64,000 nt of DNA from an archaeon. GTDB lineage: Archaea > B1Sed10-29 > WALL01 > JAGHAM01. Of the stretch, positions 20,241-50,241 are shown one piece after another. The notes under the pieces are model-generated. The model ran no database searches and was not told the DNA's origin. It saw nothing but the letters and a program-made list of their open reading frames with translations. Positions within the stretch are counted from its first letter, which is position 1; each line of letters starts with the position of its first letter. The stretch lies in assembly GCA_021107635.1 (NCBI GenBank), contig JAIOSL010000038.1:3512-67511 (forward strand), in the 5' to 3' direction. Made by a program: the position numbers and the translations under genes.

Positions 20241-20260
20241 GGATAGATATACTATCAATG

Positions 20261-23267: not shown

Positions 23268-23325
23268 ATGAGAGAATACGATAAACTAGGTTATAAATGT
23301 TATCTGGAGGAAGATTACGGTATTA

Positions 23326-23454
23326 TTAGAAGCCCATGCCAAAAGATGCTGATTGAAACATAGGCTTGATAACACTTACTAAGAGAATAATGGCGATGGC
23401 AGCCAGTATCAAAAGGTAGATGGGCGTCCAGTTGACATCACCTTTAGAGTTCAC
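23326..23454 (-). CDS. Unlisted 42-aa ORF: mini pilin-like/single-TM protein
   Basis: GTG start; MNSKG-DVNWTPIYLLILAAIAIILLVSVIKPMFQSASFGMGF*; below the 60-aa ORF-track cutoff; fills the only gap in the pilin gene run. Confidence 0.3.
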   Translation of the reverse strand: MNSKGDVNWTPIYLLILAAIAIILLVSVIKPMFQSASFGMGF

Positions 23455-23463
23455 TTAAACACC

Positions 23464-23943
23464 TTATGCGTTAACGTTAAAACCAATGATATACTTTCCA
23501 TTATTGTTGTATACTCTGATTTTTCCGCTTACATCCTTAGTTGCAGTAATCACCATTGGATTATCAGCATCACCACAAGAACCAGTTAAATCAAAGAATA
23601 TGCTAGTGAAGTTATAACCAGCTGGGCAGGAAGCTAGGTCACCTGGAGTTAAAGTACCATTACAGAAACAAACGGTTCCTTGGTTGACTCCTGCTTGGTC
23701 AGCTATACCTGAAGTGGACATGACATCTCCTTTAACAAATTGTACATTTTGAGGAGATACTGTTCCAGAGCCTCTGGCCTGTTTTACTGAAGAAATGCTT
23801 TGAGTTATTACGTGCATTGGTTCTCCTACAGGCACAATAAAGCCTTGGAGCATTCCAAGAATTATTACTAGAATGGTTCCTGCTACTACAGCAGCAATCA
23901 AAAGTTTAAAAGCATCAAAAGCTTGTCCTTTTTCATTAAACAT
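23464..23943 (-). CDS. Pilin-like protein (candidate major pilin)
   Basis: 159 aa; MFNEKGQ-AFDAFKLLIAAVVAGTILVIILGML; GAGGT SD ~9 nt upstream and own TATA-like CTTTTTAAAC; 4 Cys near C-terminus. Confidence 0.55.
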   Translation of the reverse strand: MFNEKGQAFDAFKLLIAAVVAGTILVIILGMLQGFIVPVGEPMHVITQSISSVKQARGSGTVSPQNVQFVKGDVMSTSGIADQAGVNQGTVCFCNGTLTPGDLASCPAGYNFTSIFFDLTGSCGDADNPMVITATKDVSGKIRVYNNNGKYIIGFNVNA

Positions 23944-23998
23944 GGGGTATTACCTCAAAATAAACTACAGAAAAGAGGTTTAAAAAGGTTTCTGTTAT

Positions 23999-24448
23999 TT
24001 ACCAGTTGGCAGGAGAACATTCTTCTTTATCAATGTAAACTCTACACTCTCCCAAATCGTCACATGAGGAACAAACTTTTACTTCGTATCCTTTAGTCAA
24101 AGAAATAAACGTGCAACCATTGCCAGGAAGAGCACAACCAGGAAATTCACAGAATGCTGCATCACAAAATATTTTTACATTAGTTGAGGGGGGTATGCCT
24201 GATTTTATTATAAGGCTATCAGAACTGAAATCTTGATTTTTAAGCCAGGCTGTTTTAACAAAAGAGTGTCCTGTACCTCTTGCATTATACGCACTTTTTA
24301 GGACATCAGAGCTGATGGTTTGCACATCAGTGCCATGAGTGATGTAAGTAATCCATTGAACAACACCCCACAAAATTGCTAAAAAAGCCATTGCGAAGAC
24401 AGCACCTTGTAATAGCTTAAACACTGAAGAGTATTGTCCTCGATTCAT
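23999..24448 (-). CDS. Pilin-like protein, Cys-rich
   Basis: 149 aa; MNRGQ-YSSVFKLLQGAVFAMAFLAILWGVV; 8 Cys in the last ~60 aa. Confidence 0.5.
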   Translation of the reverse strand: MNRGQYSSVFKLLQGAVFAMAFLAILWGVVQWITYITHGTDVQTISSDVLKSAYNARGTGHSFVKTAWLKNQDFSSDSLIIKSGIPPSTNVKIFCDAAFCEFPGCALPGNGCTFISLTKGYEVKVCSSCDDLGECRVYIDKEECSPANW

Positions 24449-28810: not shown

Positions 28811-28854
28811 GAATAAAAAACGCAAGAGTTTTATTTATAGGTGATGGTAGCCTG

Positions 28855-33469: not shown

Positions 33470-36400
33470 ATGGGACTTGACGAAACATACGCAAAACTTG
33501 AAGACAAATACTACGCGTTCTTAGACGGACTCGAAAAGAAAGGCATACCAATATACAGCATAGTTGACCCAATCGAGCACGCAGGCATACCATCACTTCC
33601 ACTGTTTGTGGGATTGGTAATACTTCTAATAGGACTAGCATGGTATTACATGATGCCATCAGTTGGAGGAATGCAAGACGTAACCTTTGTAATAACCTCA
33701 CAAGCTGACGGAAAATTCCTGGACGGAGCAACAATAACAGCTAAACTTGAAGGAAACGAAATAGCAACAGCAACAACCATTCAAGGTCAAGCCACACTCA
33801 GAAACGTTCCCTCAGATTCAGAAATAGACTTAATAATAAACAAGCCCGGCTGCACAGAATATCGAACAACAGTAACCCCCTCTCTAAAAAATGAACTTAA
33901 AATCAGCATGCAGTGCGGAGGCGGAGGAGGTCTAGAAGGATGTCTTGAAATCTCAAGCGACATGGAACAAACATTCCTAAAAGACGAAAACGGCAACCCT
34001 CCAGAATCATGCGAAATAAGAATCTATGACCCAATAGATCCACTTACCACAATAAACCATGGATGGCTAATCGTAGATGGTGCTCTTTATGTAGACGATA
34101 TAACAGAAGCCACATGCCCCTCAAACATCAACGCACACAAAGTTGAAATCACATGCAAAAACAGCAAATATGAAAGCACAGTATCCGCACTTTTAGATAA
34201 AATAAAAACAGAAAACGAACTCATACTAGAAACAATATCCATTGAACCAACACAACAAAATGCCACCTCAGACGTGCTAAGAGAAATAATCGTACACATA
34301 GAATCAATGGACGGCAATCCACTAGAAGGCATTATAGTAAAAGCAGTAAACGCAGAAGCCGAACCAATAACAAGCGAATTCAGCAACGTTATTCTAGAAT
34401 ACACAACAGGAAGCACAGGCAACACCCAACTAATAATCCCAGATGGACAAGCTTTTTACATTGCAGTAGAAGATCCAAAAGGAGTCTACAGAAACAAAGT
34501 TGGAGAAACCGAATATATTGCAAGCCTTGAGATGATAACCAGAGAAATCAACCTTCAAATGTCAAAAGGAGCAGGCACAATAGTCACAGTCAAAGAAAGC
34601 GGAACCCAAGACCCAATAACCAGTGCAATGGTAACAATCATCGACTCCAGCGGAAAACATGCAGGATTCCCACAAAGAACAAACTCAAAAGGAGAAGCCA
34701 GCTTTGTCCTATACAAAGGCAAAGAGTATAGCCTAGAAGTAAGACATGCAATGTACGAACCGATTAACCAAACCGTTACCGGAGGAACAGATATCACAGT
34801 ATTCCTAGAAACAGTAGACCCAACAAAAACAGGAAGCCTAGCAATTAAAACCATTAAAGCACACGGAGCAAAAGACAGGCTAGGAGGAGTAAGAATCAAA
34901 CTAATCAAAAATGGAAAAACATACACTGAAACAACAACAAGCTCTTCCGGGGAAGCCTACTTAACAGGCATACTCGCAGGAAGTTACACTCTCAAACTTT
35001 TGCCGCCAGGAGCAACAAACTATCAAGAAGGACCCACAGTAGACATTCAACCACAAAACACAACAGAAATAACCATTGAAGTCATACCAGAACAGATAAC
35101 CCTGGAACTAACAACACTAGTAAGAATAAACGGAAAAGACATCCCAAAGAAAAACGTTGAAGTACAACTATGGGACGCATACTACGAAGAACGAATAGAA
35201 ACCAAAACCTCAGGAATAGAACGCAAAGTTACATTCCAAATAGACAAATGCACAGAAGTATACTTTGTTCTAGCATACACAGAAACAGAAGAACCAAACG
35301 CAGGCAAAAAATACGGTCCACTAACAAGCACCCCAGAAGAATACTGCACAAACAAAGAAATCAAAGACCTAATCCTCAAAGAAAAACCAGACCAAACAGA
35401 ACTAAACCTAGACATATTCACACAAACAGGAGAAATAGAAGAAGAACTAATCCCAGGAACACACTATAACGCAAAACTTTCAGTTGCACTACCAGAATAC
35501 ACTCCAAACGTAATATACAAACAAATAACAGTAGAACTCTTTGTAGGCAATGACGGATACCTAGCAAGAACAGACCAAACACCACTAGTAATAGAAGACA
35601 TAGACCTAACAGACATATCCGTACAAGACCCATACATCACATCCCTACACACAGCAGATGAATACCACTATGGAGAACCAACACCACCAGAAAACGAAGA
35701 AGGAAACAGCAAATACCTAAAAGTAACCATTGGCAAATACACTCCAGGAACATACGAACTAAGCATACCCATTTATGTAAGAAGCCTAGCAGAACAAGGA
35801 AACACAATAATCAGCTACCGAGCAACCTGGATGAAACCAGACGGAGGACTAGTCTACTCACAAAGCGGAAACTGGGACGAAAAAAACATAACAATACTAC
35901 CCCCAAGCAGCTCAAACTACCACGAACTAGAAACAGGCTCCTTTTATGCATACAAAGCATGGCTCACAGCAACCAAAAGCCCAGAACCAATCCTGAACAC
36001 ATCAATAACAAAAAACGCATACTTCTACCTACACATCGACGCAATAACAAGAGACGACATCGCAGCATGGGAAGTACCACTCACAACAATACCAGACATA
36101 GCAGAAATGATAACATATGACGGAACAGTATACAGAGCAAGCGGAATGACCACAGAAATAGCCGCAACCAACATCACAGGCGACACACTAACCAACGACA
36201 ACAATATCTACAACCTCGAAAAAGACGACAAAGTAAGCCTTACAATAACACTAAAAGCAATAGGACCAGGAAAAGCATCCCTGATAACATTCAACGACAT
36301 AAGACACACACTCAGCTTCGCAGTCTCAGAAATACCAGCACTACAAAAAGAAACACTCATATCCGGAATCACAGCAACACTACAAGCACAAGCACACTTC

Positions 36401-39400
36401 ACAGGAGGAGAAGAACAATACGCAGAAAACCACTGGGGCACATTTGACATAGAAGAAGAAACCATCCCAACAAACAACAAAAAATTCAAACTAACCTTCC
36501 AATTCCAAAACACTGACACCATTGCAAAAACAGGAAAAATGATACTAGACGCAAAAGACAAAAGCCTAAGCTTCACAGGAGTAACCCAAAACGGAGCATT
36601 CTCAACAGGCACTCAAACCTACATACAAGACATAGAATTTGAAATACCTCCAGACGGAAGCGAAGTAATCATAGAAGGAACAGGCACCACCCAAACCACA
36701 AACGACATGGACATCTACATCTACGAACTAGGCACACTCAGACCCAAAGAACCATGGACTTCCATCCAATACGGCAGAATAGACTACACAGCAAGCATAA
36801 AAACATACAAAGAAGGCGGCCTACTACAAGAACCAAGCCAAGGAGCAGACGAAATCAGAGTATGGGCATACAAAGAACACGACGGAACAGAAAGCAATCT
36901 AGAAGGAGGAACAATCACTGGAGACCAAGTACAACTAGCATATCCAGGCACCAACCCAGTAGCCTACCTAAAAGAAGACCAATACTACCAACACATGATA
37001 GCCTGGGACAAACCCCTAAAAGAAACACTAAAAGCAACCCTTCTAAGCGACAAATTCGGTAAAATAATAATAGAAAAAGACGTCTCCTACCTAACATTCA
37101 ACCCAAACCCAGGAAGCGCAATAAAAACATTCACAGGAGTCTCACTCAACCCACCACAAACCAAAAGCAAAGAAATAACCCTCACAAGCTACTACGACAA
37201 AGCCATAGGAATAAACATCGGCAAAATAGAACGCATTGGATGGGAAATAACAATTAAAGCCACCACAAGAATGAAAGAAAGCGAAATATCAGGAAGTTAC
37301 GTAGACAAAGAAACCAGAGAAAACCCCTCAAGCATGATGATACCATCAAGAGGCCAACTAATAATAGAAGTCACCGCCACACCAACATCTACAGAATGCA
37401 GAGGAGAAGACTGGTACAACGGAAACGAACTCCTAGAAATAGAAGTAGACGAACTCAAAGAACCAATAGTCTATGCATTTACCCTCGACTGCACCATCCA
37501 AGGTACACCAGACATAGGCTTCCCAGGAGAACAAACATACATAGTCAGATCAGACGTAAACCCATCAAGCATAACTCACTATGACTGTTTCAACAACACG
37601 CACGAAAACCAAAAAGAAACAGCATACATCTGCGACGCAGAACAACTAGGCGCAGCACTGCTTGATGGAGCTCAAAACTTATACAGCGACCCATACACAT
37701 ACGAAACAACATTTAATTATGCACTAGGAAAAGACCGCCTAGACTACAACGTTCTATCAAAAGTACTTGAAAAACATGCAAACAGATGGACAATGGACCA
37801 CGTATACTCAAGAGAATCACTAGCAAAAGAAACAGACACCATGGACATAATTCTAGAAGATAGTATTGAATGTGGAATAACCAAAGTAAAACTAGAAAAA
37901 GTCAATTTTGACCAAGACATAAAAATCACAGTACTCAACACAGAAAATAAAGGACGCTGGTGCGAAAACACAGGTCAATCCTATATGATAGGACTACTAA
38001 ACTATGACCAAAACATTAGACCAGACAATGGACAATACTACTCCTTTGAAGGCACACAAGCAGAACGCATTCCAAAAGCAATACAATACGCTCAAACCAA
38101 AGGAAACAACATAACAATTTCCAGCCTACTAGCATACGACGCTACAGGAATAGAACCATCATCAATTGGACTCTCTCCTACTCGACTAGGAGGAACACCC
38201 CAAACATTCCTAAAATACATGGACTGTGAAATGCACGATACAACACAATGCCCAACATTCGCAATAAACGAATTCACAGGACTAAGAAAAGAATGTGAAA
38301 CAGACGGAGACTGCGGAGACCAGAATTGTATTAATGGCATATGTGCCACACCCTGTTCAGATAACACTGAATGCACAACCGGAGAAACATGCAACGGAGA
38401 ATACTGCATAACCAACGAACAAGTAACCGGAAAAGACACATCAGAAGAAGCACTAAAAGACGCATACCCAATAATAGGCTACTTCGACATAGACACCAAA
38501 GACAACATAAACCTAGGACTAATCTATGACCAAAGCAGAATAACAACAGAACAACTAGACCAATACAGAGCACTCTTCATGACAAGAATAACCCAATACG
38601 CAACCACTGGAATCGAACAAGGACAAGAAACAGCATACGGATGGTACAGCGGCTCAACAAACACCAGAATGATCTACGTTCCAACACTAGACACACACAA
38701 AGATGAAACAATAGACCTAAGCTCAATGGACATAAACGTCTACATATACTACTACGAATACAATGAAGAAGAAGACCCAATCAAAAACACTAAAATAGCA
38801 GGAGACAACAACATCTTCGTAACAATCGAAATGAATGAAAGGCCACAATACTGCATGATTGGCGACCTAATGCCCAATGGCACGATACTCTACAAAGAAC
38901 CAGAAACATCTCAAAAAGACGAAGTAGTAGACAACCCCGATCTAAGAAGACCCTATGCAATCAACAGCGAATGGGAACTACTAGGAAAAGACGGAAGAAA
39001 ACGAGTAGCAGCATACTGCGTAGACCAAAAAGGAATCACATCCAAAATTGCAATAGCAGAAATAAGACTAGACACAAGCGGCGTTGAATTCGCAAGCAGA
39101 AAACCAGAAAGAATAGCAATGTACAAACCCATGCTATTCAAAGACAACATGCCCTTCCTAGTAAGAAGCAAATACGCAGACGTCACACAATGCTGGATAA
39201 GTCTCAAAGGCAGCCCAACAGAAGGAGAAACAGACTATGAACCAAACAGACCCAGAGATGGATCAGGAAGCCTATGCTGGAACGACAAAGATGACAACAA
39301 AGGCAACCAAAGCATTCCAGAAAAATACAGAAAAGAAGACGGATGCTGTACGATCACCAAAAAAGAAGACTCCAGCTCAGGAGAACACCACTACTTTAAC

Positions 39401-42103
39401 TTATGGGAAGTCGAATGCAACAGCCCGACAATAGAAAAAGTCAATGAGGATATACCAGTCGAATTCTGGTGTGCAACAAACCTAAACCACAAAGTAATGT
39501 TAGCAGACTTTAGCATGTACAGATGGGACACAGAAAAGCCAGTATTCCCAATGCCAAGACACTTCACCCTCTCAGTAAACGGCACAGCACAATCAAGACC
39601 AATAGGAACAGTCACAACAAACACCTACAACAAAGGAGGAATAGGACTATTCTTCAACGAAGAAATCGTCTGGAAAACAAATACCACAGGAGAACTGGAA
39701 ACATATGAACCACTTAATGCAAGCGTTAATGCAGAAAAAATAACAGAAAAAGGACTATGGCTAAAATACTCTGAAGAAAACACAGCAATACTACACGACG
39801 CCAGAGACGAAAATGGCTACAAAGAATTCGAGCTAGTCAGAAAAAGCGAAAAAAGATATGACTTTAAATTCATAGCAACAGACAGCGATGGAGTAGAAGC
39901 TTGCACAGCAGAAAGCGGACTACAAGGAGAAACACACCCATACATAACATCCTGTGAAAGAACACACGCTGGAGACACCACTAAAGTAATAGTCAACTGC
40001 TCAATAGAACTGAAAGAAGGACCTAATGAAGTAAACATCTCCTGCAGAGATACCATCGGCAAAAGCGTAAACTATACTCTAAACATACTCCTAGATGAAA
40101 CACCCCCACAAGTTGACTGGAATAGTATTGCCATGACAGAAATGGGAGGAATGGTATCAGAAGACGAAAGAGAGATGATTCCGGAAATAACCTTTACAGT
40201 AAATGATACACACTCGGACGTAGAACAATGCACAGTAACAGTAGACAGCGTACTCAAAGGACTAAAATCAAGATTTTACAAGTGTACCCTAACAGATAAC
40301 CCAGACGGAAAAAACAAAAACGCAGTATGCAGACCAGAAGGAGAAATATTCTTACCTTTGCTTCTTATGAGCATAGAAGAAAACTCAGTGACAGTAAATT
40401 GTACCGACGAAGTACAAAATCTGTTCAGTGGAACTCCAATAGATGAAAGAGGAGACCCAAGAAATTTCATAGGAGAAGCATCCAGACCGATAGAAGCAAT
40501 GCCAGCAGACATAGTAAAAATGTGCGAAGTACTAAGATATGGAGCAACCCAAGACAAAATATCCTCACTAGGCTTCTCTGACCAATCAGAAGACCTAGAT
40601 GGAGTGAAAGAACTCAAAGACGACATAATAAACCAAATAGACGAAGACGGAATCTACTTTGACATGTTCTATTGTGGTGCAGACACATGCGGACAAAAAA
40701 CTAATATAACAAAAATAGAACTAGACGAGGTGTCTCACATAGTAGGAGAACAAACAAAAGAATTCAAAGTACCAATGCACGCAGAATGCCTGACAGAAGC
40801 AGCATGCGACATAGCAATAACCATACTCACCCTAGGAACAGGAAAAGTAGCACAAGCAGCTCCAAAAGCATCAAAGGCAGCTATAGCCACGGGACGTACT
40901 GCCAGAGTCCTACAAAGATTTAAACACACTCTGAAATGGATGAAACAAACAAAACTCAGTATGCTGTTCAGTAGAAGCGCGATAATACAGAAAGTAGGAA
41001 AAACAGGAAAATTAACAAAAGGCTTAGGAGGACTATCAAAGACTGCAAAGGCATGGAGCCCATTACTAAGACTAACCACAGCATATTTAGGTAAAGGAGC
41101 AACAGAAGCCCTTGGAGCAGCATACTTCAACACAGGAGCAAGCTACATGAAAGCATCATACAGCAAAATAAAAACCCCAAGCGAATGCCAACAACACCCA
41201 GGAGGAAGCATAGCAGATATAGCAGTAGATACAGTATGGCATATAGTTCCAGTACTGCCCACGCTTGCTAAAATGGCAACAGGAGACGAATTTGAAGCAC
41301 ACATATGTGCAGCAGGCAAAACAATACCCGCAGATCGCTACTACACAATCTTTGCAAAACCAGTAGCAAAAGACTCTTCCGCGGCAGGGGTTGCAGGAGC
41401 AGCATTCTCAGTATGCTTCGACTCATGTGATGACTTTGAATGTCAAGTAGTAATAGGAGAACACCCAATGCGAGAAGAAATAATAGACTTGATAAATCAA
41501 GAGATAGAGGAAGTCGAAGATGTTGAAGAAGAAGGCTGCCTAGTAAACGGCAAAGAAGATTCTGACTGTGATGGAACACCGGATGATACAGACAATTGCG
41601 TTGATGTTCCAAACGTACAGGTAAACTCAGACACAGACAAGTACGGAGACGCATGCGACAACTGCCCAGAAACCAGCAATGAAGACCAAGCAGACACAGA
41701 TGGAGATGATGTCGGGGATGTATGCGACAACTGTAAAGATGCAATCAATCCAGGACAAGTAAACTCAGATGGAGACACTCACGGAGACCTTTGTGACAAT
41801 TGTCCAGAAACCGACAATGAAGACCAAGCAGACACAGATGGAGACGGAGTAGGAGACGCATGCGACAACTGTAAAACAACCAAAAACTACTTCCAACTAG
41901 ATAATGACAACGACACATACGGAAACGCGTGTGATGGAGACATTGATGGAGATGGAACGCCCAACGAAGACGAAACAGGAGACGATGATGACCTAGATGG
42001 AGACGGAGAAAAGAACAAAGATGATCCAGACGATGACGATGATGCAGAACTAGACGAAGACGACAATACCCCATACGGGCCGACAACAACAACGGGACTC
42101 TAA
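33470..42103 (+). CDS. Giant surface protein (2877 aa): N-terminal anchor module, beta-sandwich (CarboxypepD_reg-like) repeats, C-terminal thrombospondin type-3 repeats and poly-acidic tail
   Basis: 8.6-kb uninterrupted ORF behind GAGGGG SD; TM LPLFVGLVILLIGLAWYYM near residue 43-61; motifs like GGVRIKLIKNGKTYTETTTSSSGEAYLTGILAGSYTL; C-term DNCPETxNEDQADTDGDxVGDxCDNC. Confidence 0.9.
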   Translation: MGLDETYAKLEDKYYAFLDGLEKKGIPIYSIVDPIEHAGIPSLPLFVGLVILLIGLAWYYMMPSVGGMQDVTFVITSQADGKFLDGATITAKLEGNEIATATTIQGQATLRNVPSDSEIDLIINKPGCTEYRTTVTPSLKNELKISMQCGGGGGLEGCLEISSDMEQTFLKDENGNPPESCEIRIYDPIDPLTTINHGWLIVDGALYVDDITEATCPSNINAHKVEITCKNSKYESTVSALLDKIKTENELILETISIEPTQQNATSDVLREIIVHIESMDGNPLEGIIVKAVNAEAEPITSEFSNVILEYTTGSTGNTQLIIPDGQAFYIAVEDPKGVYRNKVGETEYIASLEMITREINLQMSKGAGTIVTVKESGTQDPITSAMVTIIDSSGKHAGFPQRTNSKGEASFVLYKGKEYSLEVRHAMYEPINQTVTGGTDITVFLETVDPTKTGSLAIKTIKAHGAKDRLGGVRIKLIKNGKTYTETTTSSSGEAYLTGILAGSYTLKLLPPGATNYQEGPTVDIQPQNTTEITIEVIPEQITLELTTLVRINGKDIPKKNVEVQLWDAYYEERIETKTSGIERKVTFQIDKCTEVYFVLAYTETEEPNAGKKYGPLTSTPEEYCTNKEIKDLILKEKPDQTELNLDIFTQTGEIEEELIPGTHYNAKLSVALPEYTPNVIYKQITVELFVGNDGYLARTDQTPLVIEDIDLTDISVQDPYITSLHTADEYHYGEPTPPENEEGNSKYLKVTIGKYTPGTYELSIPIYVRSLAEQGNTIISYRATWMKPDGGLVYSQSGNWDEKNITILPPSSSNYHELETGSFYAYKAWLTATKSPEPILNTSITKNAYFYLHIDAITRDDIAAWEVPLTTIPDIAEMITYDGTVYRASGMTTEIAATNITGDTLTNDNNIYNLEKDDKVSLTITLKAIGPGKASLITFNDIRHTLSFAVSEIPALQKETLISGITATLQAQAHFTGGEEQYAENHWGTFDIEEETIPTNNKKFKLTFQFQNTDTIAKTGKMILDAKDKSLSFTGVTQNGAFSTGTQTYIQDIEFEIPPDGSEVIIEGTGTTQTTNDMDIYIYELGTLRPKEPWTSIQYGRIDYTASIKTYKEGGLLQEPSQGADEIRVWAYKEHDGTESNLEGGTITGDQVQLAYPGTNPVAYLKEDQYYQHMIAWDKPLKETLKATLLSDKFGKIIIEKDVSYLTFNPNPGSAIKTFTGVSLNPPQTKSKEITLTSYYDKAIGINIGKIERIGWEITIKATTRMKESEISGSYVDKETRENPSSMMIPSRGQLIIEVTATPTSTECRGEDWYNGNELLEIEVDELKEPIVYAFTLDCTIQGTPDIGFPGEQTYIVRSDVNPSSITHYDCFNNTHENQKETAYICDAEQLGAALLDGAQNLYSDPYTYETTFNYALGKDRLDYNVLSKVLEKHANRWTMDHVYSRESLAKETDTMDIILEDSIECGITKVKLEKVNFDQDIKITVLNTENKGRWCENTGQSYMIGLLNYDQNIRPDNGQYYSFEGTQAERIPKAIQYAQTKGNNITISSLLAYDATGIEPSSIGLSPTRLGGTPQTFLKYMDCEMHDTTQCPTFAINEFTGLRKECETDGDCGDQNCINGICATPCSDNTECTTGETCNGEYCITNEQVTGKDTSEEALKDAYPIIGYFDIDTKDNINLGLIYDQSRITTEQLDQYRALFMTRITQYATTGIEQGQETAYGWYSGSTNTRMIYVPTLDTHKDETIDLSSMDINVYIYYYEYNEEEDPIKNTKIAGDNNIFVTIEMNERPQYCMIGDLMPNGTILYKEPETSQKDEVVDNPDLRRPYAINSEWELLGKDGRKRVAAYCVDQKGITSKIAIAEIRLDTSGVEFASRKPERIAMYKPMLFKDNMPFLVRSKYADVTQCWISLKGSPTEGETDYEPNRPRDGSGSLCWNDKDDNKGNQSIPEKYRKEDGCCTITKKEDSSSGEHHYFNLWEVECNSPTIEKVNEDIPVEFWCATNLNHKVMLADFSMYRWDTEKPVFPMPRHFTLSVNGTAQSRPIGTVTTNTYNKGGIGLFFNEEIVWKTNTTGELETYEPLNASVNAEKITEKGLWLKYSEENTAILHDARDENGYKEFELVRKSEKRYDFKFIATDSDGVEACTAESGLQGETHPYITSCERTHAGDTTKVIVNCSIELKEGPNEVNISCRDTIGKSVNYTLNILLDETPPQVDWNSIAMTEMGGMVSEDEREMIPEITFTVNDTHSDVEQCTVTVDSVLKGLKSRFYKCTLTDNPDGKNKNAVCRPEGEIFLPLLLMSIEENSVTVNCTDEVQNLFSGTPIDERGDPRNFIGEASRPIEAMPADIVKMCEVLRYGATQDKISSLGFSDQSEDLDGVKELKDDIINQIDEDGIYFDMFYCGADTCGQKTNITKIELDEVSHIVGEQTKEFKVPMHAECLTEAACDIAITILTLGTGKVAQAAPKASKAAIATGRTARVLQRFKHTLKWMKQTKLSMLFSRSAIIQKVGKTGKLTKGLGGLSKTAKAWSPLLRLTTAYLGKGATEALGAAYFNTGASYMKASYSKIKTPSECQQHPGGSIADIAVDTVWHIVPVLPTLAKMATGDEFEAHICAAGKTIPADRYYTIFAKPVAKDSSAAGVAGAAFSVCFDSCDDFECQVVIGEHPMREEIIDLINQEIEEVEDVEEEGCLVNGKEDSDCDGTPDDTDNCVDVPNVQVNSDTDKYGDACDNCPETSNEDQADTDGDDVGDVCDNCKDAINPGQVNSDGDTHGDLCDNCPETDNEDQADTDGDGVGDACDNCKTTKNYFQLDNDNDTYGNACDGDIDGDGTPNEDETGDDDDLDGDGEKNKDDPDDDDDAELDEDDNTPYGPTTTTGL
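41621..41896 (+). repeat. Tandem 2 x 138-bp (46-codon) duplication inside the TSP3 region
   Basis: 41621-41758 and 41759-41896 both read GTAAACTCAGA..GACAA(C/T)TG(C/T)CCAGAAACC..AATGAAGACCAAGCAGACACAGATGGAGA..TGCGACAACTGTAAA. Confidence 0.8.
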
Positions 42104-42113
42104 AGATACAATT

Positions 42114-42149
42114 AGCGCGCTCCAAAAGCGCGCGCTCTCTTCTTTTTTT
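42114..42149 (+). terminator. GC-rich hairpin plus T7 tract after the 2877-aa gene
   Basis: AGCGCGC (42114-42120) pairs with GCGCGCT (42130-42136); TTTTTTT at 42143-42149; conspicuous in AT-rich context. Confidence 0.55.
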
Positions 42150-42188
42150 GTAGTAAAGATTAAATAAATCCTCTTCTTATCTTAGAGT

Positions 42189-45100
42189 ATGCCGGTCAAA
42201 GACTATTATTATGAAATAGAGGACCAATATTACTCTCTTCTCGACAAACTTGATGAAAAAGGGATACCCGTTTACAACTTAGTGGATCCCCTCGAGGAAA
42301 GAGGAATCCCTACATTCCCACTACTGATAGGATTAGTCCTACTACTATTGCTATTGTTCATATACTTCCTGGTAGGTGGGTTCGGACAAAGCTTAACCAT
42401 TGACTTAATGGGAAACAGTATAGGCACCTTTGACCTGCCAACAATACATAATGTTTTAGGCGGAACACTTCCGTGGATAGATGATATCATTCCTGTTCTA
42501 AACATTGGAGACGAAATAACAATTAAAGTAAATGTAAATAGTAATGATGCTCCATTAGAAGGAGCTAAAGTAAGTGTAGTACAAGGCGGTTGGGCTAGAA
42601 CAGAAACCACAGGAACAGACGGAAAAGTAGAATTCAAAAGAGTTCCACGAGGAGAAGCCACAGTTACAGCAAAAAAAGAGAACTGCAGCAAAGAAACCAA
42701 AACAATAAACGAAACCGGCGAGATTACCTTTAATCTAAAATGTGGACTCTCCTGGCCTGGTGTAGAAGGATGTATGGAAATAGATGAAACTCTTTACAAA
42801 GCTAACTTAGTAGGAACAGATAACAAGAGACCAGAACAATGCACGCTAGCGATATACGACAATCAAACAAAAACAGTCAACCTTGACTGGAGAATAGACC
42901 CAATAAAGAATATTCTGTATATAGACCCAAGCGAATGTGTAATATCAGATTATGTTGTTGTAATAGATTGTCTAGCACACGAAAGAAGAGACCAAGCTAG
43001 AATCATAATAATAGAAATGGATGGAATTGGAGACGTCAGACTAAATCCAAAAGACACAAACCCAACAGACTGTCCACCAGGAGAACAATGGGACGACGCT
43101 CTACTAGAATGTGTACCCATAACCAACCCCTGCGGAGACAATGAAATATGGAACGAAGAACTCCAAGAATGCATTCCGATAATACCAGACGATGAAGTAG
43201 CAATATACATAGTAGTGAACGACACTAACGGAGACTACCTAAGCGGGATAACAGTAAAAGCAATAGATTCAACCGGAGCAGAAATCACTGAAGGGACAAC
43301 TCAAGACGTAACCGGAACAGCAGGTACAGCTACGCTCTCACTCAAAGAAAACCAAAACTTTAGGATAACAGCAGAAGACCCAAAAGGAGACTATTCTACG
43401 ATAACCACAGGAGAATACGTTGCAGACGAAACCCAAACAATAACAATAACAATGGAAGCAGGCGCACAAACCACGATAAGAGTAATAGACAAAGAAGACA
43501 AAAGCAGAATAAGCGGAGCAGTAGTATGGCTCTATGAAATACCACACACAGAAGTAACTAACACCAATGGAGAAGTAGAACTCACCCTACCAGCAAGCGA
43601 AACATTCAAAGTACAAGTATACAAAAATTACAGTCCATACATTGGAATAGAAAGTTCCGTTAACTCAGGTGAAGTCAACATAATTGAACTAGAAAAAGTA
43701 CTTCCAATAATGAGCGGTAACCTAACACTAACCGCAAAAAATTATCACGATCACGAAGAAACAATGGAAGGAGTAACATTTAAAGTGACAACAAAAATTG
43801 GAAACGTCACCCAAAAATCATGCATCACTGACTCAAACGGAGAATGTTACATGCCATTCCTAGAAAAAGGAGATTATAACGTATATGCCACGCCAAGAAT
43901 GGGAGAAAGTCAACACGCAGGAGATGTAACAATAGTAGCAGGAACAACAACAGAAAAAACATTCTATGTTAAACCAGCAACAACCCTGCTAAAAATCTGG
44001 GTAAAACACGGCAACAACCCATACACACCAAACGCAATGGTCTCAATACTAACAGAAAACCAGTTCAACGAATGGGAAATAATGCCAGGAATGTCAGGAG
44101 AAACAGATGGATACGGCTACAAAGAATTTGAAATTCCAAAAAATACTAAAATAAAAGTAAAAGGAACCCACGACGAAAGCGGAACACACTACTCAGCAAT
44201 ATGGGGACCACAAACAATAACAGAAAGCGAAAAAGAAATAACCCTAGAACTCAAAAAAACAGAAGTCGCAATAAGCTTCTCCCCAGAAATGGAACTAACC
44301 CCAAAAGACACTAAAACAGGAAACCTCTACTTTGGCCTACCATACGTAGACGAAGTAACACAAACAAAATACGACACAATACTAATAGAACTATGGGTAG
44401 GAAGCGACGGAGAAGCAACAGACCCAATAGCAACACCAATACTCATAAATGGATTCAACTCCAACAGCCTAGAACAAGACGACGTAAGCGTACTACGCTG
44501 CAGTAAATATCCATGCTCAAGCAGTTCCTGCTGCAACATAGGAGACGGAGAACAATTCAAATACCTAAAACTTGAAATCCAAAACACAGACGAATTCTAT
44601 GAAGACATCGGAACAGCATCCATCGAACTAGAACTCTATGCAAAAGAAATCCTTTCAACAGACCACACATACGTCAACATGAAAGGAACCTGGACTTCAA
44701 CCGCAGGAGACAGAACATCAGAAAACAAAACACTCATAAACCTAACAAGCGGAAGCCCCTGGACACCCCACCCACCACCAGGAGAGGGATTCACAGGACA
44801 CAGAGCAGGATACACAGAAGACCCATTCCAAGAAAAACCATGGTCACCACAATGGAGCACATACAACGGAAGCAACTTCTACCTAATGATAGACGCAGTA
44901 GCAGCAGGAGACATGAGCACATACCAAATCAAAATAGAAGACCAACCAGACGCAAAATCCTACCTAATGATAAACAACTACAACATCTCAATCACAAAAC
45001 AAGACGGCACACAACTATCCGAATCCAAAAAAACACTCAACCAAAAACTTCCAACAGGAGGCTACAACATAAATCCAGTAGCAGACCTAGGAAACTACTA

Positions 45101-48100
45101 CGCACTAGAAATGGAAGACACACTCCACCTAAAAATAGAACTTCAAGCCATCGCACCAACAGAAGGACAATACTACGAAACATACATTTTCGAAGACTAT
45201 GACGACCTGAAATTCAAAATAATAGAACTAGACGGAGAAAACAACGAAACAACAGAAGTAACCAACATAACCTCAAGCAACAGAGCCTGGCAAACATACA
45301 TCTGCGCGCCGCCAACATTCATACCTGGATGCGGATGGGGAACAATAAACGAAACCAAAATAGAACAAGGCTACCTTCTGCCAGTCTGGTCACAACAAGG
45401 TGCACGCAACTTCCAATTCAAATTCACATTAAACAACATTGGAGACCAAGACAAAGTACTAGACTTTGCTGCAACCGGAGCAATAACACTAGATTATATC
45501 CCACAAGATATAATAGTGCCTGCAGGAAGCTCAGTCAGCACATTCATTAACGGAACAGGCCTCGCTTCCACACAAGGAACACTTGAAATATCCATGGGAT
45601 TAGATGGAGGTACAATGAAACTATGGAAAACCGCAAACTTCGGTCAAGTAGACTATGAATATACACTATGGACAACCACAAGTATGATAGAACTAGAAGA
45701 AGAAGTTCTCACAAACATCGACTCACTAAAAGCAAAGCTATCCCGAAACGGAAACGCACTAGAAGACAACGCAATAAAAGTAGAATTCCAGTGCTGGGAA
45801 GGCGGAGACTACAACAACGTCAAAACACTATGGAGAGACAACGACTACTACAAATACGAAACCGCACTCCAACTAGAACCAGGAGAAAACGCGTGCATAC
45901 TCTTCGCAGAACACCCAGAAATCGGAAGCATGGGCAAATTCTACCACGTACAAGGAATGAAAATTGAACCAATTGGAAGTGATTTCCCACTACATACATT
46001 TAGTCAAGACTATCAAGAATACAGCATTGACATAGTAATGATTAATTCCTCATGGCTAGAACCTAAAAACTTTACGCTTGACACACTTGAATTCTTTGAA
46101 CTAACAGAAGCATACGACATGACAATACAAGTAGAAACATTCAATCAAGATGGAAGCACATATGACACAAAAAGCTCCACAACACCAATAACAGAAAACA
46201 TAACCATCCCAGAACAAGGAAGCGCACTCATAACATTAATAGCAACATATGATCCCCCTTCAGTAGGAAATGAACCATTATGCAGCCAAAGCGGCTTTGA
46301 CTTCAATGGAAACATTAAAATCACACCATACTCACAGCCAACAACACAATACAACTATAATTATAACTGTACTGCAGGAGGATCTGGAGGTGGATGGGGA
46401 GACTGTGAATGTGACAGAGATGGAGACACAATTACAACAGAATTAACTGCAGCAGATTCATCCGAAATACACACAGTAAACTTAATATCAAAAACAGAAG
46501 AAGACCTAGAAGTTACCATAGATTTCTCCGAAGACTCAGATGCCACATCTAAAGGCTACACGATGACACCAAGCATAAAAATATATAATTCTACAGATGA
46601 CTTAATTGAACAACAAACCGTCTCCCCTGGAACACCAATAATAGTAACACTCCCAGCTGAAGGGACCATTAAATTCCAACTAAATGCTTCAATAGACCCC
46701 CTAGAACAAGAAGGTAATGGTTGGACATGTGAAGGAGGGCTTGGTTGGTATGCATACAACATACTAACATTTACTCCAGAAGGAAACTCAGACAAAGAAG
46801 TATACTTCATACACACATGCAGCAAAACTGGAGGAAATGGAGGAGCTACAGGAGAATTAATACTCAGAGAAACACTCACTCCAACAGAAATTCTAGGCAC
46901 AGACTACGATTATTCTTGTGATTACATAGAAGATGTAAAAACAAGACTATGCGACGCAAAACAACTAGCAAATGCAATAAAAAGATTCAAACAAGACTAT
47001 GAAGAAGACATGCCCCTAAGCCTTACAGCAACATTTGCTTTCGGAGAAGACCATCTAGACAAACCAGACATGGAAAAAGCCACAGGAAACACAGTATCAT
47101 TTAATCCGGATAACCATCAAGCAGAATTAGTTTTTGACTTACAAGGTGCTACAGCAATAACCTGCGGAGTGATATCAGTAACGGCAACAAGACAAGCAGA
47201 AGGATACACTCTCCTAACAATAAACAATGACCAAAACAAACCATGGTGTGATTCAACCCCGAAAAAACCATACTTTTTCACAGGAACTGCAAACTATGAT
47301 GAAGGACTATCAACAGACAGCGAAAACACAAAATACATGAGATTTGAAGGAGATGACACAGAACTAACCTACTTCAAAAATGCAATGCTAACCTCAATAA
47401 ATGGCATTGAAATAGAAGATGTACTAGGATATCACTACAAAGGAGGAGCAGACCTAGAAAAACCAGGAACCACAATACCTCCAATCCACGTAATATACAA
47501 TGACCTAAACTGCACAGAAGAAGGAGACAGCGGCCCAAGAGATTATCTTGACTGTCCAAAACCAGATGGAACACCAGTAGATTTAGCTTGGCTGCAACAA
47601 GCATTCAGAGAACAAGGACACGAACTAGGAGGATACTATCATTATGTACAAGACAATGGAGTAGACAAATTTTACATAGGCCTTATATACTCCAGTGCTA
47701 CCCTAACAGAAAATAGTGATCTTAACCTAATGAGGAGACTGCTAGTAGGAAACCTTATGAGTCACTGGACAATAGGAAACAACTCATGCATACAAGACGA
47801 AGAAGAAGAACTCATACTAAGAGGCTCAACAACCTGTGGATACTGCTCTTCAGGAATATATGATGAGATACTCTTAGAAGAATACACTACTACAAAACCA
47901 AGCACAACAACACCAAAAGAGTCAGTAGGAAAATCACCAGACCATAACAGTATAGGAATACACCTAAAAGTTCATTTAGATGCAGGCAAATGCAAAATAT
48001 GGAACAAACAAAAAGAAACCAACGTCCAATGGATAACCCGCGGAGACGGAAACTGGAACAGCAATGAATTCACAGAAAACTTCCCAATAGACACAACAGG

Positions 48101-49082
48101 AATGACCGAACAACACAAAGTAGAAGAAAATGACATTGCAGTAAGATGCTTCACAATTGGAGGTTCACCAGGAAAAGAACTGCCAAAAGAAAGAGAAGTC
48201 ACAATAGACTATCAAGAACCAGAAATAACAGTTAGTTCTACAAACTATAACAAAAAAGAAGGAAACCTCTATAACCTAACATTTTACGTCCAAGACAACT
48301 TTGACGTCGAAAGCTGTAGCGTCAAATACCTAAACGATACAGACCAAGACGGAACACACGAAGAATACGACTGCCCACAATGCTCATGCGAAACAATAGC
48401 ACCAAACCAGCCAGGAGACACACAAATAGAAACACAATGCGAACTCTATCTCGCACAAGAAATGGATGCAACCGAATGCGGAGGAGAACAAAAAGGCAGC
48501 GAATGCCACAACAAATTCAAAATCACATGCACAGACGAAAATGCTAACGAAATAAGTGCAGATGTATCAGTAGCAAATGGAGAATCTTCACTAAACATAA
48601 CCTTCCCCAATGAAATCTTCGCTGCATTAATAAGACTAACAGGAAACTATGGAATCGCTACAACAGAACCAGGATACATAGAACCAAAAAACGCAAGCAC
48701 TAAAGTAGTATACAAAGAATCAAACAATGTATACTATACCAACTCAGAAGTAAATGACCTAGAATTCCACATAATGGGAAACTACAATATTGACGAAACG
48801 TGTGTTATGTACTTAAGAGACCCTGATGATCCAGATGGAACAGAACTAGGAACAAGTTGGTATGACCAAGTACACTACCCCAGCACGATAACATCAATAG
48901 TAGGAGAATCAACACCAACAGATAAAAAATTCTATCTTTCAACCACCTCAGACGAAATAAAACTAAAAGAAGATGGACATTACCTCTTCAGAGTAATATG
49001 CGGAATCCCAGAAAACTATGATAATCTGCAAGCAGAGGGAGGAACCCTCAACGACCTAACAGAAGATTCACCACTTCCTTGA
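42189..49082 (+). CDS. Giant surface protein (2297 aa), paralogue of the upstream gene
   Basis: 6.9-kb uninterrupted ORF; 28 of the first 53 aa identical to the 33470 gene product without gaps; same TM position; CarboxypepD_reg-like motifs (GAKVSVVQGGWARTETTGTDGKVEFKRVPRGEATV). Confidence 0.9.
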   Translation: MPVKDYYYEIEDQYYSLLDKLDEKGIPVYNLVDPLEERGIPTFPLLIGLVLLLLLLFIYFLVGGFGQSLTIDLMGNSIGTFDLPTIHNVLGGTLPWIDDIIPVLNIGDEITIKVNVNSNDAPLEGAKVSVVQGGWARTETTGTDGKVEFKRVPRGEATVTAKKENCSKETKTINETGEITFNLKCGLSWPGVEGCMEIDETLYKANLVGTDNKRPEQCTLAIYDNQTKTVNLDWRIDPIKNILYIDPSECVISDYVVVIDCLAHERRDQARIIIIEMDGIGDVRLNPKDTNPTDCPPGEQWDDALLECVPITNPCGDNEIWNEELQECIPIIPDDEVAIYIVVNDTNGDYLSGITVKAIDSTGAEITEGTTQDVTGTAGTATLSLKENQNFRITAEDPKGDYSTITTGEYVADETQTITITMEAGAQTTIRVIDKEDKSRISGAVVWLYEIPHTEVTNTNGEVELTLPASETFKVQVYKNYSPYIGIESSVNSGEVNIIELEKVLPIMSGNLTLTAKNYHDHEETMEGVTFKVTTKIGNVTQKSCITDSNGECYMPFLEKGDYNVYATPRMGESQHAGDVTIVAGTTTEKTFYVKPATTLLKIWVKHGNNPYTPNAMVSILTENQFNEWEIMPGMSGETDGYGYKEFEIPKNTKIKVKGTHDESGTHYSAIWGPQTITESEKEITLELKKTEVAISFSPEMELTPKDTKTGNLYFGLPYVDEVTQTKYDTILIELWVGSDGEATDPIATPILINGFNSNSLEQDDVSVLRCSKYPCSSSSCCNIGDGEQFKYLKLEIQNTDEFYEDIGTASIELELYAKEILSTDHTYVNMKGTWTSTAGDRTSENKTLINLTSGSPWTPHPPPGEGFTGHRAGYTEDPFQEKPWSPQWSTYNGSNFYLMIDAVAAGDMSTYQIKIEDQPDAKSYLMINNYNISITKQDGTQLSESKKTLNQKLPTGGYNINPVADLGNYYALEMEDTLHLKIELQAIAPTEGQYYETYIFEDYDDLKFKIIELDGENNETTEVTNITSSNRAWQTYICAPPTFIPGCGWGTINETKIEQGYLLPVWSQQGARNFQFKFTLNNIGDQDKVLDFAATGAITLDYIPQDIIVPAGSSVSTFINGTGLASTQGTLEISMGLDGGTMKLWKTANFGQVDYEYTLWTTTSMIELEEEVLTNIDSLKAKLSRNGNALEDNAIKVEFQCWEGGDYNNVKTLWRDNDYYKYETALQLEPGENACILFAEHPEIGSMGKFYHVQGMKIEPIGSDFPLHTFSQDYQEYSIDIVMINSSWLEPKNFTLDTLEFFELTEAYDMTIQVETFNQDGSTYDTKSSTTPITENITIPEQGSALITLIATYDPPSVGNEPLCSQSGFDFNGNIKITPYSQPTTQYNYNYNCTAGGSGGGWGDCECDRDGDTITTELTAADSSEIHTVNLISKTEEDLEVTIDFSEDSDATSKGYTMTPSIKIYNSTDDLIEQQTVSPGTPIIVTLPAEGTIKFQLNASIDPLEQEGNGWTCEGGLGWYAYNILTFTPEGNSDKEVYFIHTCSKTGGNGGATGELILRETLTPTEILGTDYDYSCDYIEDVKTRLCDAKQLANAIKRFKQDYEEDMPLSLTATFAFGEDHLDKPDMEKATGNTVSFNPDNHQAELVFDLQGATAITCGVISVTATRQAEGYTLLTINNDQNKPWCDSTPKKPYFFTGTANYDEGLSTDSENTKYMRFEGDDTELTYFKNAMLTSINGIEIEDVLGYHYKGGADLEKPGTTIPPIHVIYNDLNCTEEGDSGPRDYLDCPKPDGTPVDLAWLQQAFREQGHELGGYYHYVQDNGVDKFYIGLIYSSATLTENSDLNLMRRLLVGNLMSHWTIGNNSCIQDEEEELILRGSTTCGYCSSGIYDEILLEEYTTTKPSTTTPKESVGKSPDHNSIGIHLKVHLDAGKCKIWNKQKETNVQWITRGDGNWNSNEFTENFPIDTTGMTEQHKVEENDIAVRCFTIGGSPGKELPKEREVTIDYQEPEITVSSTNYNKKEGNLYNLTFYVQDNFDVESCSVKYLNDTDQDGTHEEYDCPQCSCETIAPNQPGDTQIETQCELYLAQEMDATECGGEQKGSECHNKFKITCTDENANEISADVSVANGESSLNITFPNEIFAALIRLTGNYGIATTEPGYIEPKNASTKVVYKESNNVYYTNSEVNDLEFHIMGNYNIDETCVMYLRDPDDPDGTELGTSWYDQVHYPSTITSIVGESTPTDKKFYLSTTSDEIKLKEDGHYLFRVICGIPENYDNLQAEGGTLNDLTEDSPLP

Positions 49083-49271: not shown

Positions 49272-49583
49272 GTGGTATTTGAAATCCTAGGAGAAATAAA
49301 AAACAGTTTTGAACTCCTAATGCTAGGATTCAAAATAGTCCTCATGATATTCCTAATAGGCTGGGTAAGAGGACATCTAGGAGGAGGACTCATAGCAGCA
49401 GTAGTCATACTAATCCTAGGATACTTTGTAATATTCGAATACTTCATAATATTCGGACCAATGTTCCTATTCTACCTCATAATAATCATAGGAGGCGGAG
49501 TAGTAGTCCAAGACCTAGCATTCGGCAAAGAACACTACACTAAAGGCGGAAATGACTACAGTGAAGGATACCCACACCCATAA
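49272..49583 (+). CDS. Small membrane protein 1 of 8 (about 3 TM)
   Basis: GTG start downstream of TATA-like box; 103 aa, hydrophobic Gly-rich helices, short polar tail. Confidence 0.5.
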   Translation: MVFEILGEIKNSFELLMLGFKIVLMIFLIGWVRGHLGGGLIAAVVILILGYFVIFEYFIIFGPMFLFYLIIIIGGGVVVQDLAFGKEHYTKGGNDYSEGYPHP

Positions 49584-50231: not shown

Positions 50232-50241
50232 AGGTAAAAAA

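Follow-up and report, generated by a model that had tools for sequence, protein, structure and literature searches.

In archaea, type IV pilus loci encode not only minor pilins but also large predicted adhesins and S-layer-like proteins (Makarova, Koonin & Albers 2016, PMC4858521), and the pilus islands of DPANN archaea are full of unrecognizable ("dark-matter") pilins (PMC6393860). Here, we analyzed a 64,000-nucleotide stretch of archaeal DNA (GenBank assembly GCA_021107635.1, contig JAIOSL010000038.1, positions 3,512 to 67,511 of the forward strand; "the window"), in which two giant genes, termed G1 and G2, lie in tandem near a type IV pilus-like gene cluster. Their predicted products resemble the adhesins of archaeal pilus loci in being large, secreted, cysteine containing and of unassigned fold, and in being encoded close to a FlaI/TadA-type ATPase, a TadC-like platform protein and small pilins. 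Methanococcal systems also comprise two large proteins (PMC4858521), and in both cases function is read from genomic context. In contrast to these adhesins, however, G1 and G2 are 2 to 5 times larger, carry their own 38-amino-acid (aa) leader in place of one of the standard signals (class III or Sec), and belong to a family that forms tandem paralogue arrays, some of them away from any pilus cluster. We detected no sequence relationship between the two groups, no DUF2341 and no arCOG-type annotation for G1 or G2.

A second point of comparison is provided by the SPEARE proteins of Nanohaloarchaeota, which are described in PMC10266531 (citing Hamm et al. 2019) as single-copy proteins of 5,000 to 9,400 aa with a Sec signal and a VirB4/TraG-like ATPase domain. 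Both systems occur in DPANN genomes of ∼1 Mb, which devote >1% of their coding capacity to giant, acidic extracellular proteins rich in immunoglobulin (Ig)-like domains and thought to mediate cell contact. Unlike SPEARE proteins, G1 and G2 measure 2,877 and 2,297 aa, contain no ATPase or enzymatic domain recognized by Pfam or NCBIfam, and differ in leader and genomic context; no sequence similarity between the two groups emerged from the searches run.

We propose, with a probability of roughly 0.6, that G1 and G2 are anciently diverged paralogues of a family of giant surface fibers, in which a conserved stalk projects a variable binding end and the paralogues supply different ends. Export, anchoring and adhesion are deduced from the hydrophobic helix at the N terminus, the cysteine content, the Ca-binding repeats, the array of Ig-like domains, distal ends that vary and are of the binding type, rapid evolution and the proximity of surface-structure genes.

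Both open reading frames (ORFs) are uninterrupted and lie on the same strand, and our ORF calls agree to the nucleotide with those of an earlier, sequence-only reading of the window (the original prediction). Together they occupy 24.3% of the window, as against the ∼24% estimated there. G1 corresponds to NCBI entry MCD4740340.1, annotated as "thrombospondin type 3 repeat-containing protein [archaeon]" (family member P0001), and G2 to MCD4740341.1, annotated as "hypothetical protein K8R43_04065." BLASTP of G1 against G2 gave 24% identity over 1,241 columns (E = 2e-51) and a second block joining G1 residues 1286 to 1514 with G2 residues 1483 to 1648 (E = 2e-6), and a four-way alignment including orthologues was colinear up to about residue 1800 of G1 and 1940 of G2. 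The two pairs of motifs from which colinear similarity had been deduced were indeed aligned with each other by BLASTP, and the predicted divergence at the DNA level was confirmed, in that blastn (word size 11, E = 1e-3) returned no nucleotide similarity of G1 to G2. Self-BLASTP found no internal repeats in G1 or G2, and neither protein showed similarity to the other large ORFs of the window (1,106, 1,569, 642 and 743 aa).

G1 and its orthologue in the related genome locus L001 (G1o) are 48% identical over aa 1 to 1600 and 36% identical over aa 1667 to 2401, and G2 and its L001 orthologue (G2o) are 34% identical end to end, compared to 23 to 25% between paralogues. Since each orthologue is closer than the paralogue, these values support an old duplication kept under selection. 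G1-type and G2-type proteins fell into separate deep clades of a quick neighbor-joining tree computed without support values. The G1-type to G2-type order recurs in four genomes (the window, L001, L021 and L022): in Diapherotrites LH_S9 (L021, 18192-28133), a G1-type gene is followed by two more giants (2,710, 1,999 and 2,705 aa), while L022 contains the 3′ end of a G1-type gene, a G2-type gene and then, as in the window, a run of small ORFs and a polymerase gene. Moreover, tandem arrays of two or three leader-bearing giants were present in six metagenome contigs (L027, L029, L031, L034, L037 and L041), with three consecutive giants of 2,616, 2,345 and >1,030 aa in L027 and a row of three in L029 as well. 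The recurring pair order and the tandem arrays argue that the duplication is old and has been retained. A second assembly of G1 is likewise intact and differs by 1 aa. Taken together, the recurring pair, the higher identity of orthologues, the separate clades and the intact second assembly support the old, selectively maintained duplication well. The neighboring secretion ATPase is 76% identical between the window and L001, but the giants are only 34 to 48% identical between the same two genomes and are thus much faster evolving, as is typical of exposed proteins.

Word-indexed homologue searches with G1, G2 and a leader profile returned almost nothing past one orthologue and missed the orthologue of G2, and a profile search of genome contigs with the core alignment found no relative. 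By exhaustive hidden Markov model profile search with the database-dark core against 1.84 billion representative proteins, we recovered a family of 43 clusters at E ≤ 1e-3 (30 at E ≤ 1e-30), nearly all of them 1,600 to 3,600 aa in length and matching at the same position. G1 and G2 both display all of its defining features: the leader followed by G-[IVL]-P and a hydrophobic helix, the all-beta core, and an alpha/beta module with C-D-x-x-Q, C-G, W-C and N residues. The relatives P0031, P0032 and P0034 have PKD domains at the distal end, where P0031 also carries an F5/8-type-C (discoidin) domain of the carbohydrate-binding type. As far as the recovered sequences show, the family is confined to DPANN archaea and occurs mainly in Iainarchaeota (Diapherotrites). 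The family, its leader, the alpha/beta module and the tandem, pilus-linked arrangement are new in being absent from the searchable literature, and the genes are deposited essentially unannotated; as a kind, giant Ig-rich surface proteins encoded next to pilus loci in DPANN archaea are already known (PMC10266531 for nanohaloarchaeal giants; PMC4858521).

Past the leader and helix, G1 and G2 share a prealbumin-like region, an all-beta core and an alpha/beta module, after which G2 continues into a C-terminal part of its own. The original prediction had reported repeated CarboxypepD_reg-like motifs in both proteins; matches above the Pfam cut-off of 32.3 bits were found in G1 (47.3 bits) and G2 (62.8 bits; PF13620), but are confined to the first ∼560 aa. 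G2 additionally matched SpaA (PF17802; 29.4 bits, cut-off 23.1). No Pfam family covers approximately 2,000 residues of G1 and 1,700 of G2, and these parts had no NCBIfam or PDB sequence match either. We modeled G1 residues 560 to 1720 with AlphaFold2 (AF2) from 18 family sequences (mean predicted local distance difference test [pLDDT] score, 80.3), which revealed ∼810 residues of consecutive beta-sandwiches followed by the alpha/beta module of ∼330 residues. The module is marked by the invariant residues C1373, C1388-D1389-x-x-Q1392 ("CDAEQ"), C1468-G1469, W1497-C1498 and N1511, contains a Cys-rich insert (aa ∼1610 to 1665) and had no match in Pfam or PDB sequence searches. A second model (G1 residues 1701 to 2700; pLDDT, 61) added two further runs of beta-sandwiches and a helical region predicted with low confidence. 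Cysteines number 62 in G1 and 47 in G2 and include conserved pairs.

The two proteins part company toward the C terminus. The G1-type C-terminal region is common to P0002, P0018, P0020 to P0022, P0045, P0047 and the end of the upstream gene in L022, and most G1-type proteins terminate at its C-x-D-S-C-D-D-F-x-C motif; G2 does not have this end. It includes the sole strongly basic stretch of G1, with a net charge of +14 in aa 2461 to 2520 (window positions 40850 to 41030) compared to −218 for the whole protein. This stretch is found in seven of eight G1-type proteins, 150 to 250 residues before the canonical end (equivalents in P0002, P0018, P0020, P0022, P0045 and P0047), and could represent a membrane- or polyanion-binding segment, its helical structure being predicted at low confidence. 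In G1, the canonical end is followed by thrombospondin type 3 (TSP3) repeats in five stretches (PF02412; 34.0 bits, cut-off 25), which matched COMP (PDB 3fby; E = 4e-25) and thrombospondin-2 (E = 1e-18). The repeats are absent from G2 and from the G1 orthologues and are therefore an add-on of G1, and the sequence match to thrombospondin/COMP is limited to this C terminus, i.e., to 6% of G1. Prokaryotic surface proteins commonly bear TSP3 repeats as a Ca-binding add-on. Searched against PDB sequences, both the single proteins and the family profiles gave only TSP3 and prealbumin-like matches.

Structure prediction followed by Foldseek, suggested in the original prediction as a check, yielded confident beta-sandwich strings whose neighbors were Ig-array adhesins, cadherins, S-layer proteins and macroglobulin-type arrays. 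For the core, these were CD109, ECAM, TEP1, the MG arrays of alpha-2-macroglobulin, PrgB Ig-like domains and antigen I/II C123; for the second beta-sandwich run, they were extender repeats of RTX adhesins, SiiE, cadherins and the S-layer proteins SbsB and Sap. Phage tail and decoration proteins were also among the matches. The queries were whole multidomain models, and the alpha/beta module was not resolved by Foldseek. At the fold level, G1 and G2 thus share strings of beta-sandwiches, Ca2+-binding elements and a distal ligand-binding region with bacterial Ig-array adhesins (SiiE, Aeromonas RTX extender repeats, PrgB and antigen I/II), but this likeness is generic (TM-scores, 0.1 to 0.29; 6 to 11% identity). 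In contrast to those adhesins, neither G1 nor G2 matches an RTX or BIg family of Pfam, and both are without a type 1 secretion signal, an LPXTG motif or internal repeats; there is no outer membrane, and anchoring would be by the N-terminal helix in the archaeal membrane. As originally predicted, no catalytic motif was recognizable, be it in Pfam, NCBIfam, the PDB sequence search or Foldseek. The many N-x-S/T sequons invoked in the original prediction did not hold up: G1 has 20 and G2 27, compared to 22.8 ± 4.0 and 22.7 ± 4.1 in composition-preserving shuffles, and as these counts are no higher than chance, the argument for enrichment and glycosylation was dropped. Absent from that prediction were the DPANN affiliation, the conserved leader, the TSP3 repeats, the alpha/beta module and the pilus and archaeosortase genes nearby.

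The leader is the best-conserved segment of the giants (74% between orthologues, 46 to 51% between paralogues). In both G1 and G2, a G-[IV]-P-[ST]-[LF]-P motif lies between it and the helix, which is the only 19-residue window of G1 with a Kyte-Doolittle score of ≥1.6 and likewise the single N-terminal hydrophobic helix of G2. While the leader comprises ∼38 aa in G1 and G2, it ranges from 16 to 65 aa over the family; G-[IVL]-P marks the helix start in 25 of the 27 members with intact N termini, and the long leader is present in 21. In 24 metagenome loci found via leader alignment, all complete ORFs with the leader measure 1,701 to 2,648 aa. A conserved extension before the hydrophobic core of the signal is also known from the extended signal peptide region (ESPR), which is restricted to very large bacterial proteins exported by type V secretion; the archaeal leader is unrelated to it in sequence and belongs to another domain of life. 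Neither G1 nor G2 has an archaeosortase-type C-terminal signal or a hydrophobic helix at the C terminus.

On the plus strand, the giants are part of a block in which an archaeosortase-family gene, the gene for the 743-aa pilin-like protein, G1, G2 and small two-helix membrane ORFs follow each other. The 174-aa archaeosortase-family protein matched TIGR04178 exo_archaeo (40.9 bits, cut-off 23) and Pfam Exosortase_EpsH; the best specific model was archaeosortase B, far under its cut-off. The Cys, Arg and His positions of its motifs LC.G..E, N..RI and H...FR are conserved in 16 loci. The 743-aa protein has no Pfam match, and orthologues occupy the equivalent position in L001 to L005, L015 and L021. 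This block is divergent from a type IV pilus-like cluster on the minus strand, and the same layout was observed in L001, L021 and L002 to L005. The minus-strand side further encodes a 642-aa ORF, a small polytopic membrane protein and the 1,569-aa protein, which on the basis of its C-terminal signal is the likeliest archaeosortase substrate. Corresponding signals are present in its orthologues in L002 (2523-7094; VPIRPADW, transmembrane helix, KKKKR) and L008 (near position 61; LPSLPEDP before the helix). The sequence [ILV]-P-x-x-P before a helix is common to the N termini of the giants and the C-terminal sorting signal of the 1,569-aa protein. The coordinates of all these features are compiled in Table 1.

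Table 1. Giant genes, their predicted regions and neighboring features in the window
Feature	Coordinates	Strand	Basis or description
G1, giant surface protein, 2,877 aa	33470..42103	+	ORF and translation; uninterrupted
G1 conserved N-terminal leader, aa 1-38	33470..33583	+	..EDKYYxFLDxLxxKGIPxYxxxDPIExxG
G1 G-I-P-S-L-P motif and sole hydrophobic helix, aa 39-60	33584..33649	+	Putative signal-anchor or long-leader signal peptide
G1 prealbumin-like/CarboxypepD_reg beta-sandwich region, membrane-proximal, aa ∼70-559	33677..35146	+	Pfam PF13620, PF17802, PF24025
G1 all-beta core, family-specific, aa 560-1370	35147..37579	+	AF2 tandem beta-sandwiches (model residues 1-810), pLDDT mostly 80-90; no Pfam match
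G1 alpha/beta module, family-specific, aa ∼1385-1715	37622..38614	+	Invariant columns in 18-sequence alignment; AF2 secondary structure (model residues 825-1155)
G1 second beta-sandwich run, Cys-rich, aa ∼1720-2320	38627..40429	+	AF2 model residues 20-330 and 405-620, pLDDT 70-89
G1-type C-terminal region, aa ∼2440-2669	40787..41476	+	Basic helical low-complexity stretch, then C-x-D-S-C-D-D-F-x-C
G1 TSP3 (Ca2+-binding) repeats, aa ∼2690-2877	41537..42100	+	Pfam TSP_3; COMP
G1-G2 spacer, 85 nt	42104..42188	+	Hairpin, T-rich run, TATA-like element
G2, giant surface protein, 2,297 aa	42189..49082	+	ORF and translation; uninterrupted
Archaeosortase/exosortase-family membrane protein, 174 aa	30656..31180	+	First gene of plus-strand block
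743-aa protein	31197..33428	+	Type IV pilin-like (class III) N terminus MKRG/FSIFTPMVGTILITIALLIVA; immediately 5′ of G1
Type IV pilus-like machinery, divergent	20757..28825	-	ATPase, platform protein and six small ORFs
Secretion ATPase	26522-28825	-	Pfam T2SSE, 75.2 bits; NCBIfam FlaI/TadA-like
Platform protein	24445-26544	-	Pfam T2SSF (weak)
Six small ORFs	20757-24448	-	Class III-like N termini in 5 of 6
1,569-aa protein	15549..20258	-	Last of minus-strand operon; C-terminal tripartite signal IPTRPEETDW / transmembrane helix / RTRLKKR

If the giants are surface fibers, their N terminus would export the remaining 2,240 to 2,820 residues and, unless cleaved, would also anchor them in the membrane, which we favor over cleavage. 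The exported part would be a long, acidic, disulfide-containing string of domains, in which four or five prealbumin-like beta-sandwiches are followed by the family-specific beta-sandwiches, the alpha/beta module, further beta-sandwiches and a distal end that varies between lineages. This end would consist of the basic helical segment, the small Cys motif and the TSP3 repeats in G1, and of PKD and discoidin domains in relatives. The protein would then act as an adhesion or contact fiber, whose stalk holds the binding tip away from a very small cell, with two (elsewhere three) paralogues providing different tips. Since the giants share a block with an archaeosortase-family gene and the gene for a large pilin-like protein, beside a pilus-like machine, the fibers are probably deployed together with the adjoining type IV pilus-like structure. 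The original designation as adhesins or host-contact proteins is plausible in this light, with indirect support from the AF2 beta-sandwich strings, the Ig-array neighbors in Foldseek, the PKD and discoidin tips and the pilus-like linkage.

Several observations weigh against the fiber reading. The Foldseek matches (PDB and BFVD) do not exceed a general similarity to Ig arrays, S-layer proteins included, and in the searches run no fold was assigned to the alpha/beta module or to the G1-type C-terminal region. Most members have a Gly/Ala/Pro-rich stretch after the helix, which is a candidate signal-peptidase site and would speak for removal rather than anchoring, and the charges flanking the helix leave its orientation unfixed. 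Among ∼7 leader-selected metagenome loci with at least 8 kb of upstream sequence, one had an ATPase and one a sortase. Finally, Iainarchaeota have been suggested to be free-living (PMC10936187), so that "host contact," the second part of the original designation, is less obvious than in other DPANN archaea.

It seems unlikely, if the best placed of the alternatives, that the giants are borne on a pilus. The leader would then be a long class III-like signal cleaved by a prepilin-type peptidase between G39 and I40, the ATPase and platform protein would extract the helix, and G1, G2 and the 743-aa protein would be located on the pilus or at its tip. Similar arrangements are known from minor pilin/tip adhesin complexes and from the Sulfolobus bindosome, where a pilus-type machine assembles proteins that bear class III signals without being pilins. 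A Gly directly precedes the helix in 25 of 27 family members, and Lys or Arg is found at position −2 in 10 of the 27 by inspection (∼40%), including G2 (ERG/IP) and G2o; the 743-aa protein and the small pilin-like proteins encoded nearby use [KR]-G(-Q) sites. The conserved divergence of the sortase, 743-aa, G1 and G2 genes from those for the ATPase, platform protein and pilins would also fit, as would a 498-aa class III-type protein encoded between two giants in L024, and archaeal pilus loci with two large adhesin-like proteins set a precedent (PMC4858521). However, no prepilin peptidase (Peptidase_A24) was found among the window ORFs, and most leader-selected metagenome loci have no pilus ATPase within 8 to 10 kb upstream, i.e., pilus linkage is not universal. 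The 38-aa leader far exceeds known archaeal class III leaders and is too long for the short leader expected of type IV pilins and class III signal peptides. Pro at +2 and +5, the former being atypical of class III signals, and the frequent lack of Lys or Arg at −2, as in G1 (HAG/IP), also appear to fit the canonical motif of FlaFind-type rules poorly.

A bolder and distinctly doubtful extension would be that the leader of ∼38 aa, ending in G-[IVL]-P-x-x-P, and the helix together form a new N-terminal sorting signal dedicated to the giants and read by the co-encoded surface-assembly genes. It would be processed either by prepilin-type cleavage, with the helix passed to the type IV pilus-like machine, or by the archaeosortase-family enzyme, whose presumed C-terminal substrates share [ILV]-P-x-x-P before a helix. 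The giants would then be machine-deployed tip structures ("grappling" fibers), and the basic helical end of the G1 type would touch the membrane of another cell.

We also regard as improbable that the giants are not adhesins but the main structural proteins of the envelope, forming an S-layer-like, helix-anchored canopy on long stalks. SbsB and Sap are among their Foldseek neighbors, the lineage conserves the genes and invariably has them intact, archaeal pilus loci often hold S-layer-like proteins (PMC4858521), and no other obvious S-layer gene was recognized within the window. On the other hand, two or three strongly diverged paralogues with domain-shuffled ends (TSP3, PKD and discoidin) suit binding proteins better than a lattice, orthologues diverge very fast, and the 1,569-aa protein with its C-terminal sortase-type signal is a better S-layer candidate.

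Very unlikely, in our view, is a covalent trap, in which C-D-x-x-Q would form a Cys-Gln thioester that attaches to a target, comparable to the CGEQ of alpha-2-macroglobulin and C3 or to the thioester domains of Gram-positive adhesins. It is true that Cys1388 and Gln1392 are invariant in 18 diverse members, that the top core matches in Foldseek are thioester proteins (CD109, ECAM and TEP1) and that 4 of the 18 gave weak bMG3 Pfam matches. Yet the spacing is i,i+4 and not i,i+3, the module is alpha/beta and unlike the helical toroid of macroglobulin thioester domains, the A2M and TED Pfam families matched none of the 18, the Foldseek TM-scores (0.10 to 0.14) are accounted for by the beta-sandwich arrays, and all four invariant cysteines of the module can pair as disulfides. 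That the genes are assembly chimeras or decaying pseudogenes is effectively refuted, with no supporting evidence found, by the uninterrupted ORFs, the nearly identical second assembly of G1, the full-length orthologues of both genes in other genomes and a composition uniform with the surroundings.

Between the two genes, the spacer contains the hairpin GCGCGCT/CCAAA/AGCGCGC at 42115-42133 (seven pairs, six of them G-C; −16.2 kcal/mol), followed by a T-rich run at 42137-42149 (TCTCTTC, then T7 at 42143-42149). This GC hairpin/T7 element, which the original prediction had described as terminator-like, is the strongest plus-strand site of its kind between 30.5 and 49.7 kb; overall, that interval has no more such sites than its shuffles. 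A TATA-like element, TTAAATAAA, is located at 42160-42168, ∼25 nt 5′ of the G2 ATG. In L001, a 9-bp hairpin directly follows the G1o stop codon, and TTAAATAA is found ∼25 nt 5′ of the G2o ATG. Read as a putative terminator and a putative promoter, and recurring as they do in L001, the two elements suggest a separate, possibly leaderless, transcript for G2. Other lineages have a spacer of only 28 to 34 nt, which is too short for such signals and would fit co-transcription there.

The window is chromosomal DNA of an archaeon of the Iainarchaeota (DPANN). Archaeal markers encoded in it comprise deoxyhypusine synthase, PAC2, a family B DNA polymerase, aspartate carbamoyltransferase and a tRNA of 121 nt; the latter (59990-60110, minus strand) scored 49.4 bits in Rfam, was missed by ARAGORN and probably contains an archaeal-type intron. 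The secretion ATPase near the giants shares 77% identity with that of a Candidatus Iainarchaeum genome, and a profile search of genome contigs with this neighboring ATPase, which was the source of our taxonomy and synteny comparisons, found 19 related genome loci, all 19 labeled Iainarchaeum, Diapherotrites or other DPANN. The related genomes look to be ∼1.2 Mb in size. Base composition is even across the window, and an origin from a mobile element or virus was rejected on the basis of the housekeeping neighbors and this uniform composition. The AT skew of the plus strand reaches 0.35 to 0.50 over G1 and G2 (34000-48000), above most of the remaining window, because the coding sequence is very A-rich (rich in Thr, Glu, Asp, Lys and Asn codons). 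The DNA polymerase of L022 (14621-18220; 1,199 aa) has an intein with a LAGLIDADG domain, and the window copy (55283-57604; 773 aa) has none.

Directly 3′ of G2, eight or nine small two-helix membrane ORFs (81 to 142 aa) extend from 49272 to 52104 on the plus strand. The run is kept in three genomes (the window; L001, 25144-28076; L022, 8370-10469), and several of the ORFs share P-x-P-(A)-G-G; a 158-aa ORF at 49552-50028 overlaps the run and looks spurious. Further along the plus strand (53617-54747), a 376-aa protein gave a weak match to HerA/DUF87 P-loop ATPases (E = 5.6e-4) and is flanked by genes for two short coiled-coil proteins on the opposite strand. It was considered as a SPEARE-like partner of the giants and rejected because the Pfam match is too weak and none was found in PDB or NCBIfam. 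Three sets of pilus-type ATPase and platform genes lie within 30 kb (143-3192, 9075-11898 and 24445-28825), each near large secreted proteins of no recognized family, such as a Cys-rich 1,106-aa ORF (5379-8699). The type II/IV secretion ATPase at 9075-10637 (plus strand) is fused to an N-terminal 2x[4Fe-4S] ferredoxin domain, which is unusual for a pilus-type ATPase.

For this lineage, two or three genes of 6 to 8.6 kb, i.e., >1% of a genome of ∼1.2 Mb, are kept for a single family of surface proteins, of which databases describe no more than some generic beta-sandwich domains. Surface proteins of this giant, Ig-rich type are to be expected in DPANN archaea, and current ideas are not overturned by their presence here. 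If the giants were indeed machine-deployed tips that touch other cells, this would be evidence for a cell-contact lifestyle in the Iainarchaeota, which are often called free-living. The limits of the family, its domain map and invariant residues, the leader and the gene arrangement provide targets, such as the tip domains, leader cleavage and the alpha/beta module, for studying the attachment of Iainarchaeota to surfaces or partner cells and for asking if these archaea are truly free-living.

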